From positions 62,001 through 126,000 of the forward strand of contig JBDOQK010000071.1 of NCBI GenBank assembly GCA_040437565.1: DNA of 64,000 bases, in the 5' to 3' direction. Of this stretch, positions 29,915-60,960 are shown piece by piece (positions within the stretch are counted from its first letter, which is position 1; each line of letters starts with the position of its first letter). Source of the stretch: Albugo candida (lineage: Eukaryota). The notes beneath the pieces are model-generated. The model was not told the origin of the DNA. It ran no database searches and was given only the letters and a program-made list of their open reading frames with translations. Position numbers and translations under genes: made by a program.

Positions 29915-30549
29915 TTTTGTGTGCTACTACGCGTCAAGGATTCCCAAAATGGTTTGTTTGTTTGTTTTGGTTGGTGGATAGCGAGGGGCTTTTATTAGGA
30001 AATATGGAGTAGATTACGGAAGGTGTTCCCAACGTGGAAGAAAGCATTTTGTGCGTAAAAAACGAGCATTTATTGAAGTTAAATGAGAAGAACTGAAAAG
30101 CCGGGATTAACGATGAGGAAATGACTATTCTCGCGTATCTATTTCAGTTGCTTTTGGGCAACTTTGTGAACAGCAACTCTGTAGTGATACATTCTGTCAA
30201 CATCAATGTGTCTGAAGATAATGAATCGCGATCGTGAAGTAAATAATGTATTCACATTTAATTATAAATGTGTCGATACGAGCCTTGTACAAACGTGCTA
30301 TCATTTTGATCTTACTTTACTTAGATTCGCATACACACCATACAATACACAAAATCCAAAAACCGGTAAAGTTTGCAACTGAGCAAGTTATTTGAAATCA
30401 CTCGGATTGGCTAGCGTAGAAAACAATCTCTTGTATTGGCTATTAATGACAAACAATTCATTGACACGTGTTAGTTTGCTGCTCCTTTGCTCAATAAACG
30501 CTCTGTGCCGTTCATTATCCGAATTCTGTCTCAATCGTGACATTGGACA

Positions 30550-33500
30550 ATGAAACGTACTACTACTCATAGTCGGGGATGGCTCACCTCACCCACTCGT
30601 GCCATCTCCGCCTTTCTTTTCCTACTTCATAGTTGCTCTCAACAATGTGTGGTACACGCCAAAGTAGCCGGCCTTGATTTCGGCGGCGAGTACTTCAAAG
30701 TCGCGCTTGTTAAACCAGGCACACCCTTTGAAATCGTGACCAATGTCCACAGTAAGCGAAAGACGGAAACAATGGTTGCATTCGATGGCGAAGAACGTAT
30801 CTATGGAGCTGATGCCGATACGATTGGTGTCCGTCGTCCTCACACCGGATACGCTCAAATTCGCCGTTTTCTAGGATCGAGTTTGGATCATCCTGGAGTT
30901 CTGTCCCTAGTTACACAAGAATACTTTCCGTATACCTTAAAATTGAATGAGAAACGGGGGACGATTCATTTAGAGCATGAAAATGAGCAATTGTATCACG
31001 CCGAAGAAGTTGTGGCTATGGTCTTTTCACATGTGCGCCAAATCACGGATGTGTTCGCAGAGAGCGACGTCAAAGACTACGTCATTACCGTGCCCGATTA
31101 CTACACTCAGGCGCAACGACAAGCAGTATTGGATGCTGCTGAAATCTCTGGTTTGCGTGTGCTCTCTTTAATCAATGAGAATACTGCGGCTGCCCTACAA
31201 TTGTGTATCCACACCAGTATGGAACCCAACGAACGCAAACGTGTGATGTTTTATAATCTAGGGTCAACCTCATTACAAGTAAGCATCGCGGAATTTTACA
31301 GTTATGTGGTTCCAGTGGGCTCATCGTCGAATAAAACGGTAATTGGATTTTCAGTCCTTTCGAAGGCGTGGGATGAACATCTCGGAAGCAGCAAGATTGA
31401 CCTTCGTCTAGCCGAATATCTCGCACGTGTCTTCAATGAACAAGTTCTTCATAATAAACAAGATGTCCGAACACTTCCCAAAGTTATGGCCAAATTGCGT
31501 GCACAAGCCAAAAAAACAAAAATCGTACTTAGTGCGAATGAAGAGATTCCAGTCGTGATGCAATCGTTACTTGATGACTACGATTTGAGAACGGTTGTGA
31601 CTCGTACTTTATTGGAAGAAATCAGTAAAGATCTCTTAGATCAAGTTCTCGGTCCAGTAGAGGAAGCACTCCGAAAAGCAAACTTAACACGTGGCGATAT
31701 CCAAGACGTCGAACTTATCGGTGGTGGTGTGCGCATGCCTAAAGTACAGAGTCTGCTAAAAGAGTTCTTCAATGTACAAGAGCTTGGAGCGCATCTGAAT
31801 GGAGACGAAGCTATGGCACTTGGTGCTGCATTCCGCGCCGCCAACTTGAGCAATTCCTTCCGAGTGCGACCAATTCATATGACTGATATCTCAACTTACG
31901 CTATTGGCGCTCGTTTGGCTGATATACATCTTGAAGATGAAAAAGAGTCGACTTGGGCCAAGCACGCGCCGCTGTTTACTACTGCACACCGATTGGGCGC
32001 ACGTAAAGCCGTGAGCTTGACACATGCGCGCGATATGACCTGTACATTCCATTATAACGAGCCGTCGAGCTTGCCGAAGGGAGTTTCTACTCACATTGGA
32101 AAGTTCTCAATCACTGGAATTAAGGACTTTTACACGCAACATTTGGAGAAAAATTTAGGTGAACCGAAGGTTACGCTAACGTTTTCATTGGATTCGAGCG
32201 GAATTGTGTCAATTATAAAGGCGGAAGCTACTTTAGAGGAGGAGTACGAGGTGGAAGTCGAAGTTCCCGTCGAGAACAAGGAAAAGACGCAAAGCGCAAC
32301 TACAGATGCTGACGCCGACGCTGTAAAAGAAAAAATCGATTCTACTGAAGAAAAGACTGGAGACGCTGACAAAACCGAGGAAAAGGATGCAAACGTTGAA
32401 GAAAAAGTTAAAAAGGAGGAAGAAAAAGTGGAAGAAAAAGTGGAGAAAGTGATGCAAAAGCGAAAGCGAACACTCCGTTCGGCGCTTTCGGTCAAGCTTG
32501 TCGAAGAAAGATTGGGTGAAAATAACGCTATTATGAGTATTCTACCAATGAGCTCCTCGGACAAAAGTGACTCGATCAAACTATTGCGCGAAATGGAAGC
32601 CGCTGATAATAAACGCAAAGCCAATTTGGATGCAAAAAATCGTCTTGAAGCTTTTGTCTACAGTGCGCGTGATTCATTGGAAAGTGACCAAGACGCCATT
32701 AGTCAAGTTACGCTTCCCGAGCAAGTAAATGCGATTTTGATCAAATTGGAAGCCGCTGAGGAATGGCTGTACGAAGACGGCGATAAAGCGGAGGCTTCCG
32801 AGTATCAAGCCAAGCTTTCAGAGATCGAGACGGAATTGGATGCGATCTTATTCCGANNNNNNNNNNNNNNNNNNNNNNNNNNNNNNNNNNNNNNNNNNNN
32901 NNNNNNNNNNNNNNNNNNNNNNNNNNNNNNNNNNNNNNNNNNNNNNNNNNNNNNNNAAAAATCGTCTTGAAGCTTTTGTCTACAGTGCGCGTGATTCATT
33001 GGAAAGTGACCAAGACGCCATTAGTCAAGTTACGCTTCCCGAGCAAGTAAATGCGATTTTGATCAAATTGGAAGCCGCTGAGGAATGGCTGTACGAAGAC
33101 GGCGATAAAGCGGAGGCTTCCGAGTATCAAGCCAAGCTTTCAGAGATCGAGACGGAATTGGATGCGATCTTATTCCGAGTATCGGAAAAAACCGATTTTC
33201 CAAGCATTATTGAGGATGCAAAAAAACTTGCGCTCAGTATGAAAGCCAAACTGAGTGATTGGGCGGAAACGCGACCGTGGATTACCGAACAAGAGCAAAG
33301 TGACGCTCGTGCGCGTGTGGAAGAATTGGAGACGTATCTGGAGGAAGCCGTGACAAAGCAAAAGGATCATCCCCCACATGAACCGCCTCTTGTCACGTCA
33401 GCCAATGTAAAGAAGCAAATGCAGCAAGTCAAACGGCTTATTGATCGACTTGCAAAGAAACCAAAGCCAAAGCCTGTGAAGGATGTCAATGCGACCGAGA

Positions 33501-33691: not shown

Positions 33692-34100
33692 GTTAATTTG
33701 CAATAAACACACTTTGCCTGGCTAATTTCGTAAAGTTACTTTTTTCGAGCTTGTTATTGCGAGATTTTGTTGTGGAAGTGTAAATAAGCGTATAAAGGAG
33801 ATGGTGTGTAAATAGTATAAGTAGACGTGTTAGATTTGTAGAGAATGGGTTGCAAGTTGATTGGTCAAGAAGCATTGTGACGTGGGTGGGGTGATAGATT
33901 ATGAGAGGCCTCCTCTTTGTTTNNNNNNNNNNNNNNNNNNNNNNNNNNNNNNNNNNNNNNNNNNNNNNNNNNNNNNNNNNNNNNNNNNNNNNNNNNNNNN
34001 NNNNNNNNNNNNNNNNNNNNNNGAGGCCTCCTCTTTGTTTTGATATTTGACGGATAAGTCAATTGTCTCAATTCCAAATTCTGGTCCGAAGCGAATTATA

Positions 34101-34808
34101 ATGTCGGAAACAGAAATCGCGCAATTCGAATCGGAAGCGGCTGAATTTCATACCACCACACAAACGTCACATGAGGCTTCTAATGTGGAAACGAGTTCGG
34201 CTGTAGACGCTGAGATTGAAGACATGAAACGTCGCGTGAAGGAAATGGAGGAAGAAGCCGCGAAACTGAGTGAAATGCAATCGCAAGTCGAAAGTCAAAT
34301 GGGAAAAAATACCGCATCCTCTCTCAATGAACTCAATGCGAGTGCTTCGGGAGCTTCCAGCCACGCGATTGGATCCAATTCCAATACTTCCACCAATCCG
34401 AATGGAGGAAACAACACCGCGTTGGATGATTCGTCCGTTTACGTGGGTCAAGTGGATTATGGGAGTACACCGGAAGAGTTACAAGCGCTGTTCCAATCTT
34501 GTGGTACAATCAATCGTGTCACGATTTTGTGTGACAAATTCACGGGACAACCGAAAGGGTACGCTTATATTGAATTCGCCAGTAAAGACGCCGTGGAGAG
34601 TGCTTTATTATTAAATGATACAATGTTTCGAGGACGACAACTCAAAGTAACACCAAAACGACAAAACGTGCGTGGATTTAACTATACACGTGGTGGTCGT
34701 GGATCTATGCGCGGTCGTATGAACGGTAGAGGCCGAGGCGGTCGTGGTCGGTCCATGGGACGAATTGGTTTTCGTGGAAGAGGGCGAGGTTTCCACCCTT
34801 ATTACTAA
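34101..34808 (+). CDS. PABPN1: Nuclear poly(A)-binding protein 2
   Basis: Coiled coil [55 protein letters not shown] tail ending FHPYY. Confidence 0.95.
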
Positions 34809-42891: not shown

Positions 42892-43214
42892 AGCTAAAAG
42901 GCGAAGGGATTCCATGATTGGCTGGAACGGGAGGAAGCATTGTTTGTGATTGGTTGAAATGGGGATGAACAAGAGCGAGTACGATTGTAGATAGTGTTGC
43001 TGTAATGTTGCTCGTAGAATTCTTTGATAGTTTCTGGAGCTTTCTGGAATGATTCTCACCGTGTGTGAAGAGCGTATTTAAAGATATCATTACCGTAATA
43101 AACCGTAAGTATTGGAATACATACCACTTGATCGATTGGTTCACAAAGAACATTCAAACAACTCGTGACGAAAAATAAGTTACAGCGAATTCTAACAAAA
43201 CAAAGCAAGGAACA

Positions 43215-45200
43215 ATGTTACGACTAAGTACCTCATCGGCTGTGTATGCATCCGCAGCGTCTAAGCGATTTTTGACAAGCACTCGTCAGGCGCAGAATGT
43301 AGCAGGGTCTGGTGCGGTTATTGGTATTGATCTTGGAACCACCAATTCATGTGTGGCGACTATGGAAGGAAAAACTCCGCGTGTGATTGAAAACTCGGAA
43401 GGTGCTCGAACCACGCCTTCGGTTGTTGCCATTTTGGATGGCGGTGAACGATTGGTTGGAATGCCCGCCAAACGTCAAGCAGTAACCAATCCAGAGAGCA
43501 CATTCTATGCTGTCAAACGTCTAATTGGTCGGAAATACAATGATGGTGAGACTAATAAAGTGAAAGAAGTCGTAAGTTATAAAATCGTACCCGGTCCAAA
43601 TGGGAAAGACGCTTGGGTCGAGACAAAGGGACAAAAGTACTCTCCCTCTCAAATTGGGTCAATGGTACTTGCTAAAATGAAGGAAACAGCAGACAGTTTT
43701 CTGGGTCAATCAGTGTCCCAAGCTGTCATTACCGTCCCAGCTTATTTTAACGACTCTCAACGACAAGCCACCAAGGATGCTGGAAAAATCGCAGGCTTGG
43801 ATGTGTTACGTATCATCAACGAACCCACCGCCGCTGCGTTAGCGTATGGAATGGACAAAGCGGATGGTAAAGTAATTGCAGTATTTGATTTGGGAGGTGG
43901 GACATTTGATGTATCAATTTTGGAAATCTCTGGCGGTGTTTTTGAAGTCAAATCAACCAATGGAGACACATTATTGGGAGGCGAAGATTTCGACGAAGAG
44001 CTTTTGCGTCATCTCGTGTCCAAATTTAAACAAGAATCTGGAATTGATGTTTCTAAGGACACTCTGGCCATGCAGCGACTTCGAGAAGCAGCAGAAAAAG
44101 CTAAACGTGAGCTCGATGGATTGGCACAAACCGATATCAGTCTTCCTTTCATCACTGCTGATGCAAGCGGACCCAAACATCTCAATATGAAAATTACTCG
44201 CGCAACATTTGAGAATTTGGTATCGAAACTTATTGAGCGAACAATTACTCCGTGCCGAAAATGTGTCACTGACGCTGGATTGGCCAAAAAAGATATCAAT
44301 GAAGTGATATTAGTGGGTGGAATGTCTCGAATGCCTAAAGTACAACAAGCAGTGGAAGACTTTTTTGGTAAAAAACCTTCCAAAGGTGTTAACCCCGATG
44401 AAGTCGTGGCTATGGGGGCTGCTATTCAGGGCGGTGTGTTACGTGGTGATGTGAAAGATATTTTGTTGCTTGATGTGACTCCATTGTCGCTCGGAATTGA
44501 AACGTTAGGCGGTGTGTTCACTAAACTGATACCGCGAAACACAACCATTCCTACAAAAAAGTCACAAGTATTCTCTACGGCCGCGGATTCACAGACTCAA
44601 GTTGGTATCAAAGTGTTACAGGGCGAACGAGAAATGGCTGCAGATAACAAATCGCTCGGAAACTTTGATTTGGTAGGAATTCCACCTGCACCGCGTGGTG
44701 TACCTCAAATTGAAGTGTCGTTCGATATCGATGCGAATGGTATCGTGAATGTTGCAGCAAGAGACAAAGCCACCGGAAAAGAGCAAAACATTGTCATACA
44801 ATCGAGTGGCGGGTTGTCCGAAGCGGATATTGAGCGAATGGTTCAAGAAGCCGAGATGAATGCGACAGCCGACCAACAGAGGAAGGAGCTGATTGAGCTG
44901 AAGAATGACGCTGACGGTGTCATCTACTCAACGGAAAAGACGCTCAAGGAGTATGAAGACAAAATTGAAGCCACATTAGTGGAACAAGTGAAAACTGACT
45001 TGGCTGATTTACGGAGTAAAGCTGAAGGCGATTCAGTCGATGAGATTAAAGCCGCACTTGAAAAAGTTCAACAAAGCTCACTCAAAATTGGTGAGGCTGT
45101 GTACAAAGCTCAGCAAGGAAAGGAAACATCGGAAAAGGATAGTGAAACGAGTGATGAGTCCACGGTACATGATGCCGAATTTAAGGACAAGAAAGAGTAA
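43215..45200 (+). CDS. HSPA9: Mitochondrial Hsp70 (mortalin/Ssc1)
   Basis: Presequence, [52 protein letters not shown] and VIQSSGGLS. No cytosolic EEVD or ER retention tail. Confidence 0.96.
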
Positions 45201-46725: not shown

Positions 46726-46948
46726 CGCTATGATACAATACGATCAAAACATCACGTAGGAAGCTAAACTTAGGATCATGGATCGAGATGTCATTGGTCG
46801 GTACAAATAGACTTTGTGCGAGTAATTGAAAATAATATTTTGTGAAAACGCCAAACTGGGAAGCCACCAATGATGGGGTCACATTATATACGGGTTTGAA
46901 TTCTTACATACAATACTTCCCATTAAAAGTATACATCTGGGCAGTTCA

Positions 46949-47932
46949 ATGGCTCACGAATTTGAAACACCGTGGGTTGAAAAGTATCGGCCGACCTCAT
47001 TAGATGACGTAGTTGCGAATCAAGAGACTATCACGTGTTTGAAAGCAATGGCTCGCGATGGCAACATGACCAACATCATTCTTTCAGGACCTCCGGGAAC
47101 AGGAAAGACCACGAGTATACTCTGTTTAGCCCGCGCGTTACTTGGCCCCGCACTTAAGCAAGCTGTCTTGGAGTTAAATGCGTCCGATGATCGAGGTATT
47201 GATACCGTCCGAACCAAAATCAAGTTATTTGCGCAACAAAAAGTTAATTTACCACCTGGAAGGCACAAACTTGTCATTTTGGACGAAGCTGACAGCATTA
47301 CAGGTGCCGCTCAACAAGCTTTGCGACGAACAATGGAAATCTATTCCAGTACGACTAGGTTCGCCCTGGCGTGTAATAATTCCACAAAGATTATCGAGCC
47401 TATCCAGAGTCGGTGCGCCATTCTTCGATTCACACGATTAAAAAATGAATTGATACTGGAACGACTTTTATTTATCTGCCAGAACGAACATCTCACGTAT
47501 CAAGAAGACGGACTTGCTGGCATTATATTCACCGCAGAAGGCGATATGCGAAATGCAATCAACAATCTACAGGCTACTCATGCCGGTTTCGGTGCCATCA
47601 CAGACGCCAATGTATTCAAAGCGTGTGACCAACCGCACCCCGGAATTATCAAGAAAATGTTGGAGGAGTGTATCCAATCGAAATTATCAGCAGCAGAAAC
47701 GCACTTATTCGGACTCATTCGCGCCGGATACTCAACTTTTGACTTGATTGAGACTATATTCCGAGTATGTAAATCATTGGAGATGGATGAACATCTGCAG
47801 CTGGAATTTATCAAACAAATCGGAGTCACGCACATGTGCATAGCAGATGGGTTGAGTTCTCTATTACAGATACACGCGCTTATAGCACGGCTGTGCTCCA
47901 ATGCTGGTAAAATAAATGCGCCAACATCGTAA
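46949..47932 (+). CDS. RFC2: Replication factor C small subunit (human RFC2/yeast Rfc4 type)
   Basis: Motifs [50 protein letters not shown] and GDMR. Confidence 0.94.
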
Positions 47933-47966: not shown

Positions 47967-48524
47967 CTATTGCTCTCTGCTTTCGGTATTACCATCTGGG
48001 TTTGTAACTTTAAGTGACGAAAGTGAGCTAGTTGCTTCATCATTGGTCTAAAGTAAACACAGTCACACTCATCCTAACTTGCCGTAAGTGTATGTTGTAC
48101 CTGATCCATTAAATCGCCAATTGATTTCTCAAGTTCATCGATACGCGTACCCATGTCGTCGAGTATTTTTTCCAATCAAAAAAAAGTTTGCGTTAAGGAT
48201 ACAGTCAAATGTGAAAATTGCAACAAATGAAAGGAAATTGTCAACATAAAGGGATATTTCGTCCAATGATTGCCTCCGACATCTGAGAAAACCGATTTTG
48301 CTATCGAATACAAATTACAACGCGAAGGAAAGGGAGTATACGACGCATAAACCATTTGTTCCAATAGCGTTTGCACAAAGACAGTCAGATCCTGGGCTTC
48401 ACCCGACGGTACTGTTTGTGCTGGTGCCGGTGGTGAAGACACTTCTTTCCTGTTTGTGTCAGCGGAATTCTATGCAAAATAAGTGAGAAACGAAGCTGCA
48501 CGTGACAAAAGACTGCTTCACCAT
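47967..48524 (-). CDS. HSBP1: Heat shock factor binding protein 1, 5 exons including one AT-AC intron
   Basis: Spliced product M|[59 protein letters not shown]..EQ*. Confidence 0.92.
48163..48257 (-). other. U12-type (minor spliceosome) AT-AC intron, 95 nt
   Basis: 5' end ATATCCCTTT, branch site TATCCTTAAC (48201..48192) and 3' end AC. Its removal gives IIGRIDDMG. Confidence 0.9.
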
Positions 48525-48602
48525 GGCTTAAATACGTTTTGCGAATTTTGTTTTTATCACACTAATTAAAATACGATTCACTTTTAATAAAAGACCCTCC
48601 AA

Positions 48603-48803: not shown

Positions 48804-48988
48804 TGCATTTATAAGATTTAATAGCTTATAGAGGTTACATGACTCCTAATATACTTCTTCCGCAAGTAGCGTAATTTACACAACTTTTNNNNNNNNNNNN
48901 NNNNNNNNNNNNNNNNNNNNNNNNNNNNNNNNNNNNNNNNNNNNNNNNNNNNNNNNNNNNNNNNNNNNNNNNNNNNNNNNNNNNNNNN

Positions 48989-50642
48989 GGCGACGTCGCA
49001 CAAATTCTAGGAATCAAATCAGAGTCTAATGCGGCACTAGGTTCGTTCCGCCGTGCTGTTGCTTACATAGACCAAATTCCCTTTTCTTGTAGAAAAAGTT
49101 GCCACGCCCGTTAGTGGCAACAAGCCTCCATTGAAAAAGCTGACCGGAATGCAACGTGAGGTTCTCGGACTCATGGAAAGCAGCTACCGCGGCCATCATG
49201 CTTTCTATCCGAGTATTCCAAAGCAAAGCCTTCAGCAGAAGTGGAAAGCCCATAAGTCAATCCCTGCAATCAAGTGGAAGAAACTATCCTTCCAAAATCC
49301 TGCACGCAAAGACTTGCCGGGCGAAAATTGCCCGGAATCATCTAATGAGCGTGGTCCACTTATCTTACAACATTGGGTAAAGGCACACAATTCCGGGATG
49401 GAGTACACATTTGCCCGATTTAATGTAACTTGTGTGACCACCACTTACACCAACGAGGAGTATGTCAATTGTATCGAAAAGTACACTGATCCACTGATGA
49501 AGCCATGGACAAGATCACAAACTGATCTCTTATTTCAATTGTGTCAGCAGTACGACTTGCGCTGGTTTGTCATCGCAGACCGATGGTTTACATACACACA
49601 ACATGATGATGTTGCACCAAGCACTTGGACTTTAGAGGATCTTAAATATCGATATTATGAACTTACTCGAGTGCTTGCAACTTATCGCGAACAACAAAAT
49701 ATCGCCGACAAAGCGATCAAATTGGATCCTCAGTGCAATGAAGCGGCTTTGAGCGAGTGTCCGAAGAACGGATCAGCCCCTACCGCTGCGATTCCGTCCG
49801 AAGAATCTCGACCCGTCCAGGGCAGCGTGTCGTTATCAATCGATCCTCAATTCTCGTTCAATCTTTTGTATGAGAAACAGCGCAAGAGCCAATTGGAAAG
49901 AGCATTCCGGCGCTCTATTGAAGAAGAAAAAGAGATCCAAGCACTCAATGAAGAATTGCGTGATCTTGAACAGCAACTCAAGAAAACAGCTGGCAAAATG
50001 GACGCAAAAAAGAAAAAGGTATCGTATCGGACTTCTTTCTTCTTCCAAACGCAATCGCACACTTTTTCTATGATAGGAATTGGCCGTCGCCAGCTTGAGT
50101 GCGCGTGAATTCCCAGTCGGCGTTTTTCTGCGAAGCATTTGTGTGACAAATTGTCCAATCAAAGGAAAGATGCTCAAAAAAATGCAAGCGGTCCTAAGAG
50201 AGCTCGGTATTCCGGCCCGCCCAATGCCGACGCAGAATGTTTGTGAGATGTTTGATACACTTCGTGAAGATATCGTGGGGCTTTTATCACTCCGAAAGCA
50301 TCTTGAAATGAAGCAAAAAGAACTCTCAACGCTCCAAAACCGGTATCGTAGCCTTACCGGCGAAACGTATGAACCTGTAGGAATCCATCCGTTAAAGCAA
50401 GCAGGTATGTTGATCGTTCATTTTTTGGTACAAGCGCTTATATTTCTTGAACAGATCTGGAAACTACCATATTACAGGGTGGATTGGGCGAAGTGGAAGC
50501 GTCACAAGTGTCGGTGAACGATACGCCAACGACATTCGCTGGGAAAGCAATGAAACAAGCTGGAAAAACGGCGCGGAATGCTTCTAAACGGCGAAATTCA
50601 GCAGCGATTGGAAGCGGATTTAAGCGGAACAAGAAAGCGTGA
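48989..50642 (+). CDS. DMAP1: DMAP1/Swc4 (NuA4/SWR1 subunit), multi-exon; start codon probably lies in gap 48889..48988
   Basis: (M)GDVAQILG, GMQREVLGL, FQNPARKD, LQHWVK, FARFN, SANT WTRSQTDLLFQLCQQYDLRWFVIADR, EDLKYRYY and PMPTQNVC. Confidence 0.88.
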
Positions 50643-60419: not shown

Positions 60420-60960
60420 TTGGAATGAGACTCGAGCAACCTTTCAAGATATAGCACTTGGCAAGATGCGATTGGTTGAAAGCGCATGATAAGAGGCATT
60501 GGTTGGATAATTTTCGACGTACGAGAGATTCATTTGATTTGTAGAAGATGGTACATACTATAAAGGAAGTGATTAAATAATTTNNNNNNNNNNNNNNNNN
60601 NNNNNNNNNNNNNNNNNNNNNNNNNNNNNNNNNNNNNNNNNNNNNNNNNNNNNNNNNNNNNNNNNNNNNNNNNNNNNNNNNNNATTTTTGAAATGAACAG
60701 GTCCCTCCCAAAGGGAGGATCAAGAAATTGGATCAAGCCGCCATGATAGGGGTCAAGTCCACGGTAATCTTTAGTAAAAGGCGAAAGATTAATTCGTGTT
60801 GAATTTAACCCGACGGAGATACTCTAATCTCCGTACTTTGGCAAACTACATAGTGGGTTACATCCCACACGGACAAAGCGCACTCACCGTGAGCACGCCC
60901 CACACAGTACCACACATCTACCGCCCTGTAATAGACAATAAACAATGCTCCCCTTTCATA

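Follow-up and report, generated by a model that had tools for sequence, protein, structure and literature searches.

The HSBP1 gene and its surroundings

The window, by which we mean the whole 64-kb stretch of Albugo candida DNA analysed here (G+C 41–45%; 43%), carries on its minus strand a gene for HSBP1, the spliced model of which has five exons and encodes a protein of 101 amino acids (Table 1). The identity of the gene, already proposed in the original prediction, was borne out by a match of the exon-4 piece to the Pfam HSBP1 family (PF06825; 34.6 bits against a cutoff of 28.6, E=1.7e-8, profile positions 30–50) and by collinearity with the HSBP1 annotated in Albugo laibachii Nc14 (F0WJR0, 94 aa), the closest of the named homologues, which was found with the read-through ORF as the query. 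The spliced protein matched F0WJR0 with a phmmer E-value of 3e-47 within the fetched set, and 82 of the 94 aligned residues (87%) were identical in an alignment that is unbroken at the junction created by the removal of intron 3. This intron begins with AT and ends with AC; when it is kept in the mRNA, the sequence gives an in-frame stop after five codons, so expression of HSBP1 depends on the AT-AC splice. At the gene's start, the initiator ATG abuts intron 1 (ATG/GTGAAG...), and the protein receives nothing from exon 1 beyond this codon.

HSBP1 is convergent with an RFC2-like gene, the two stop codons lying 34 nt apart, and the best named matches of the RFC2 protein are from oomycetes (Lagenidium, 77%; Globisporangium and Pythium, 72–74%). 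One contig of 1337 nt spans the HSBP1 exons and continues into the RFC2 region, so that either the 3' UTRs of the two genes overlap or the assembler merged two mRNAs. HSBP1 regulates the heat-shock response, and two ORFs of the Hsp70 family are found no more than 18 kb away from it; the one at a distance of 3 kb gave a full-length HSP70 match (E=6e-264). This proximity is probably a coincidence. Undetermined bases (N) total 1800 in the window, and one run of them lies just upstream of the 5' end of HSBP1, so the promoter region is incomplete.

Table 1. Features of the HSBP1 locus and of other parts of the window (X15, X16, X18 and X20 are sequencing runs; a slash separates the two positions joined in a contig)
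Feature	Positions	Strand	Description	Evidence
HSBP1 exon 1	48522-48592	-	5' UTR (at least to 48592) and ATG at 48524-48522	Contig of X15 (48522-48592); X20 has the same joint, to 48469
HSBP1 intron 1	48470-48521	-	52 nt, GT-AG, phase 0, GTGAAG...CATAG	Joint 48469/48522 in X15 and X20
HSBP1 exon 2	48353-48469	-	117 nt, N-terminal region with the beginning of the HSBP1 domain	PF06825 profile positions 1-14, E=0.024; contig joints
HSBP1 intron 2	48301-48352	-	52 nt, GT-AG, phase 0	Joint 48300/48353 in four of four runs
HSBP1 exon 3	48258-48300	-	43 nt, last base is first base of an Ile codon	Sequence; contig joints
HSBP1 intron 3 (AT-AC)	48163-48257	-	95 nt, phase 1, U12-type by its signals	Joint 48162/48258 in X15, X16 and X18; loose end in X20
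Donor of intron 3	48248-48257	-	ATATCCCTTT	Sequence
Branch region of intron 3	48192-48202	-	GTATCCTTAAC	Sequence
Branch motif	48192-48199	-	TCCTTAAC; the branch A would be 48194 or 48193	Sequence
GT-type U12 donor motif	48195-48202	-	GTATCCTT, overlaps the branch motif	Sequence
T8 run	48178-48185	-	15-22 nt upstream of the acceptor	Sequence
Acceptor of intron 3	48163-48164	-	AC, end of ...AATAC (TAC at 48165-48163)	Sequence
HSBP1 exon 4	48101-48162	-	62 nt, conserved core of HSBP1 domain	PF06825 match; contig joints
First AG past the donor	48128-48129	-	34 nt inside exon 4	Sequence
HSBP1 intron 4	48048-48100	-	53 nt, GT-AG, phase 0	Joint 48047/48101 in X15 and X16
HSBP1 exon 5, coding part	47967-48047	-	Stop codon 47969-47967; 3' UTR extends into the convergent RFC2 gene	Sequence; 1337-nt contig of X16 passes 47850
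RFC2-like gene	46874-47932	+	Convergent with HSBP1	Oomycete matches
Hsp70-family ORF	43179-45200	+		
Hsp70-family ORF	30541-32970	+		
RRM ORF	34044-34808	+	PABPN1-like	PDB matches
U5 snRNA gene	60703-60818	-	Full length	Rfam RF00020
N run	about 48870-48990		Just upstream of HSBP1 5' end	

Splice joints in transcript-like contigs

Splice use was read from contigs of four sequencing runs, each from a different study. Six of the listed runs, of which these four were examined, carry 0.18–0.35 of the words of the stretch, against 0.93–1.00 in 14 DNA-like runs; the RNA type of the runs is a guess, no listed run being recorded as RNA. The original prediction had pointed to the junction 48258/48162 as the one to look for in transcripts, and it is present as an exact joint in the contigs of three of the four runs (three studies), with 95 nt skipped, GT..AT at the borders as written on the plus strand and no positional ambiguity. 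The contig of the fourth run (X20) stops at 48258 with a fitting overhang of 11 loose letters, which are the start of exon 4. Introns 1, 2 and 4 are likewise missing from the same contigs, with CT..AC at the borders on the plus strand, which reads GT..AG on the strand of the gene. One X15 contig (48274-48382) keeps intron 2 and would represent unspliced pre-mRNA or contaminating DNA. The contigs document the joint and not the efficiency of splicing.

Given the guessed run type, the joined form might be DNA, either a processed retrocopy or a strain without the segment, or an artefact of contig assembly, and not a product of splicing. We consider this extremely improbable, as the joints are identical in four runs from four studies, the runs hold the fraction of words that exons-only material would, and the independent HSBP1 of A. 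laibachii has the same joined junction. The precise loss of all four introns at their GT-AG or AT-AC borders, in four studies, argues that the contigs derive from spliced RNA.

Sequence signals of the AT-AC intron

On rereading the minus strand, the position, length and description of the intron given in the original prediction proved to be exact, as were the signals it had listed (donor core ATATCC, branch motif and AC end) and the two deviations that it had pointed out, a C at position +7 of the donor and a long distance from branch to acceptor. Exon 3 ends with ...GGACGAA at 48258 and the intron opens with ATATCCCTTT, which agrees with the U12 donor consensus /RTATCCTTT at positions +1 to +6 (ATATCC), +8 and +9, and has C in place of T at +7. 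The branch region GTATCCTTAAC includes the motif TCCTTAAC, which matches the consensus UCCUUAACU at eight of eight positions and places the two candidate branch adenosines, 48194 and 48193, 31 and 30 nt, respectively, from the last base of the intron. Both consensus sequences, together with AG/GURAGU for U2-type donors, are those given in PMC2846911. The same source describes, on the basis of a personal communication, a strict prediction heuristic that demands RTATCCTT and allows only C-to-T changes at +5 and +6; the HSBP1 donor fails this heuristic owing to the C at +7.

Downstream of the intron, exon 4 opens with TCGACGAC at 48162, and the last A of exon 3 and the TC of exon 4 form an Ile codon, so that the protein reads ...IIGR-I-DDMG... 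across the junction. As the intron contains no AG and the first AG past the donor lies well inside exon 4, no GT-AG or GC-AG intron could restore the conserved HSBP1 core, in agreement with the earlier statement that no GT-AG splice does so. Beyond 7 nt 3' of the branch motif, no AC or AG precedes the terminal AC. Just one other AC is found 3' of the motif, and its end is only 7 nt away from the second adenosine (48193), which leaves the acceptor used as the first AC or AG with a workable spacing. Between branch motif and acceptor lie a run of eight T, followed by the purine-rich GATTGGAAAAAATAC, and a yUnAy-like TTGAT 17 nt from the acceptor; a pyrimidine tract directly at the acceptor is absent. 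A hairpin between the U8 run and an A6 run, which would have cut the effective distance from branch to acceptor to about 12 nt, was considered and found to be unsupported (MFE −1.9 kcal/mol, z = −0.26, 60 of 200 shuffled sequences folding as well). The sequence GTATCCTT, which overlaps the branch motif, is a perfect U12 donor motif of the GT type; its use as a donor was seen in none of the contigs. The three GT-AG introns of HSBP1 are 52–53 nt long and in phase 0, while the AT-AC intron has 95 nt and is in phase 1.

The combination of these signals is rare in the window. The motif TCCTTAAC occurs once in the 64 kb on both strands, namely in the AT-AC intron, and the pattern ATATCC followed after 30–60 nt by TCCTTAAC gave one match on both strands against an expectation of 0.02; among 100 dinucleotide shuffles of the window, two contained such a match. 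None of the other donor-like motifs (11394+, 24369+, 9299-, 45554-) has TCCTTAAC within 400 nt, and one of them has a one-mismatch version of the motif 367 nt away. The HSBP1 intron is the only minor-intron candidate found in the window.

Components of the minor spliceosome

From its signals, the AT-AC intron would be expected to depend on the minor spliceosome with its U11, U12, U4atac and U6atac snRNAs. When the 64-kb window was searched with Rfam, a U5 snRNA was the only match at the gathering threshold; at E≤10 it was joined by a single chance match to a miRNA. The U5 gene is full length (RF00020, 85.7 bits, E=2.5e-13), and U5 is common to both spliceosomes. An ORF with an RNA recognition motif (RRM) was considered as a candidate U11/U12 protein and rejected: it has a single RRM and a tail rich in RG, is PABPN1-like, and its best PDB matches are to poly(A)-binding protein 2 (E=1e-32 to 1e-41). 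Elsewhere in the group, minor snRNAs are reported for Phytophthora, Hyaloperonospora and other gyristan stramenopiles (PMC2396436; PMC11347168), and minor snRNAs and U12 introns for oomycetes (PMC2396436, PMC2846911, PMC10639083, PMC5608401), with minor introns reported in both Phytophthora and Saprolegnia (PMC10639083). The U6atac of oomycetes is described in PMC2396436 as having an unusual 'CC variant' in the region presumed to base-pair with the 5' splice site.

The junction in HSBP1 models of other oomycetes

The comparison set held 116 HSBP1 relatives, 16 of them named oomycete models, and was read at the level of protein models. The junction is correct in five of the 16 (A. laibachii, P. 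capsici, Aphanomyces astaci, Peronospora belbahrii and Peronosclerospora sorghi). Another seven models (two of P. fragariae, and one each of P. citrophthora, P. cactorum, P. cinnamomi, P. nicotianae and Pythium oligandrum) read through after ...IIGR into N-I-L, and in four (P. cactorum, P. ramorum, P. sojae and P. idaei) the junction is skipped or distorted. In line with the expectation that gene finders restricted to GT-AG introns would mis-annotate the gene, 11 of the 16 models, from Phytophthora species and Pythium oligandrum, are therefore wrong exactly at this junction, by read-through, truncation or a substitute splice (P0038, P0041, P0060, P0071, P0084, P0088, P0089, P0096, P0104, P0106 and P0114 in the set).

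The tripeptide N-I-L is what A/ATATCCTN encodes, that is a consensus U12 donor in the same phase, which suggests that the AT-AC donor is conserved at this position in the read-through models; it would also fit a consensus T at +7 in the Phytophthora and Pythium introns, where the A. candida intron has C. Neither N-I-L nor S-I-L was found at the junction of any non-oomycete relative among the 116 members of the set. Seven models have Leu in place of Ile before DEMG, as expected if the last C of the intron is read together with TC, bearing in mind that this Leu could also be encoded by TTR rather than CTN. The P. citrophthora model reads the entire intron in frame, implying a length of 87 nt, and 12 codons before the junction it contains F-L-N, which is compatible with TTCCTTAAC. 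This suggests a branch site about 38–39 nt from the acceptor implied by the model, and thus a long spacing shared with the Albugo intron. Orthologous DNA was sought by scanning metagenomes with a degenerate pattern for the end of exon 3 and the donor, which hit at least 118 loci; by tblastn, none of the 118 listed was HSBP1, the pattern being too loose. Taken at face value, the same codon and phase in the Phytophthora and Pythium genes would make the AT-AC intron older than the split between Albuginales and Peronosporales/Pythiales.

Probable assignment of the intron to the minor spliceosome

Taken together, these data argue that the segment 48257-48163 on the minus strand is very probably a U12-type AT-AC intron in HSBP1 that is conserved across oomycetes. 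The U11/U12 di-snRNP would recognise the 5' splice site ATATCC... and the branch site TCCTTAAC jointly, adenosine 48194 or 48193 would attack this 5' splice site, and whichever AC or AG comes first at a sufficient distance past the branch would serve as the 3' splice site, here at the unusually large distance of 30–31 nt. The phase of the intron fits this assignment, minor introns being biased away from phase 0 according to PMC10639083. The spacing does so less well: the optimum distance between branch and acceptor in U12 introns is 11–13 nt (PMC3584512; PMC6717393), and classifiers search for the branch only as far as −40 (PMC2846911; PMC6717393). The distance in HSBP1 is within this search range and far from the optimum, a short spacing being a typical and not a defining property.

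The intron might alternatively be a U2-type 'type II' AT-AC intron removed by the major spliceosome, its U12-like motifs being relics in a lineage that is losing, or is without, the minor spliceosome. The genome of Albugo is reduced, which counts towards such a history, as do the U2-like spacing of 30–31 nt between branch motif and acceptor, the T8 run and TTGAT that lie between them, and the departure from the U12 consensus at +7. U12 introns are moreover described as having no pyrimidine tract (PMC3584512), and AT-AC termini alone do not settle the type of an intron (PMC3584512; PMC1557818). Nevertheless, we regard a U2-type intron as unlikely. Positions +4 to +6 of the donor (GAA/AUAUCC) read TCC, which, judged by eye, is unlike the RAGU of the U2 consensus GURAGU. 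The survival of an ATATCC donor and of a branch motif perfect at all eight positions would be unexpected in the absence of selection, since in length the introns of Albugo and Phytophthora are otherwise unrelated (95 nt versus the 87 nt implied by the protein model). The donor is conserved across genera, as far as protein models indicate, and minor snRNAs are reported in oomycetes (PMC2396436; PMC10639083; PMC11347168).

A different possibility retains the U12 type and the spacing rule, and places the branch not at TCCTTAAC but at a weaker, unrecognised site nearer the acceptor. It would accommodate the 11–13-nt optimum, which is well documented (PMC3584512; PMC6717393), but it too is improbable. 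Downstream of 48192 the intron contains no sequence within one mismatch of TCCTTAAC, the segment 10–20 nt from the acceptor (TTTGATTGGAA) is without the CCTT core, and the F-L-N of P. citrophthora, at the protein level, fits TTCCTTAAC at the similarly long distance given above. If TCCTTAAC is the branch site of a U12-type intron, as we prefer, oomycete minor introns may function with a branch 30–40 nt from the 3' splice site, the tight 11–13-nt rule having been lost in the lineage. We put this forward as a tentative and rather doubtful generalisation from two cases, the A. candida intron, where the spacing was seen in the DNA, and that of P. citrophthora HSBP1, where it follows from a protein model. 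Were it true, classifiers that are limited to 40 nt and favour short spacing would under-count oomycete minor introns, and this under-counting could explain the 'very few' minor introns reported for Phytophthora.

Judging by this intron, minor-type signals still serve in the splicing of at least one essential-looking gene of an obligate plant parasite whose genome is small. The range of minor splicing would thereby widen from Phytophthora, Hyaloperonospora and Saprolegnia to Albugo, an early-branching lineage. The intron also provides a correction to annotation, as the faulty public oomycete HSBP1 models go wrong at a junction where an AT-AC intron had not been allowed, and the long spacing between branch and acceptor, apparently common to Albugo and Phytophthora, makes the gene a natural case for studying the choice of 3' splice sites by the minor spliceosome.

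Comparison with known minor introns

U12-type introns of Phytophthora were reportedly described by Russell et al. in 2006. Two AT-AC introns and one GT-AG intron of the U12 type are supported by ESTs in each of P. sojae and P. infestans, according to Bartschat & Samuelsson 2010 (PMC2846911). In the literature searched, we found no paper that deals with minor splicing in Albugo or reports HSBP1 to contain a U12 intron; published intron lists may include the HSBP1 intron, the Phytophthora ortholog of which may already be among the published Phytophthora U12 introns. The Phytophthora introns share with the intron described here the oomycete lineage, the AT-AC subtype and the consensus of donor and branch, and the read-through models indicate that Phytophthora HSBP1 would also have an intron that agrees in codon and phase and begins with a donor of the ATATCCT type. 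What sets the present intron apart is its Albugo host, the C at +7 and the branch motif 30–31 nt from the acceptor.

The U12-type AT-AC introns of animals and plants (PMC3584512; SpliceRack, PMC1557818) likewise have an ATATCC core, the branch motif TCCTTAAC, an AC end and a non-zero phase, and reside in genes whose other introns are of the U2 type. The HSBP1 intron differs from them in its spacing (30–31 nt where the optimum is 11–13), in the C at +7, in the T8 run past the branch and in being very short (95 nt). U2-type AT-AC introns such as those of human SCN4A and SCN5A (PMC1557818) resemble it in their AT-AC termini and in a branch region far from the acceptor; their donor, however, is U2-like apart from +1 and they have no U12 branch motif, whereas the HSBP1 intron has U12-type signals at both sites. 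Finally, Blastocystis and Saprolegnia (PMC5608401; PMC10639083) are stramenopiles that have also kept minor introns, 196 of 253 being AT-AC in Blastocystis; their genomes contain dozens to hundreds of such introns and Phytophthora reportedly very few, compared with the one candidate in 64 kb found here.
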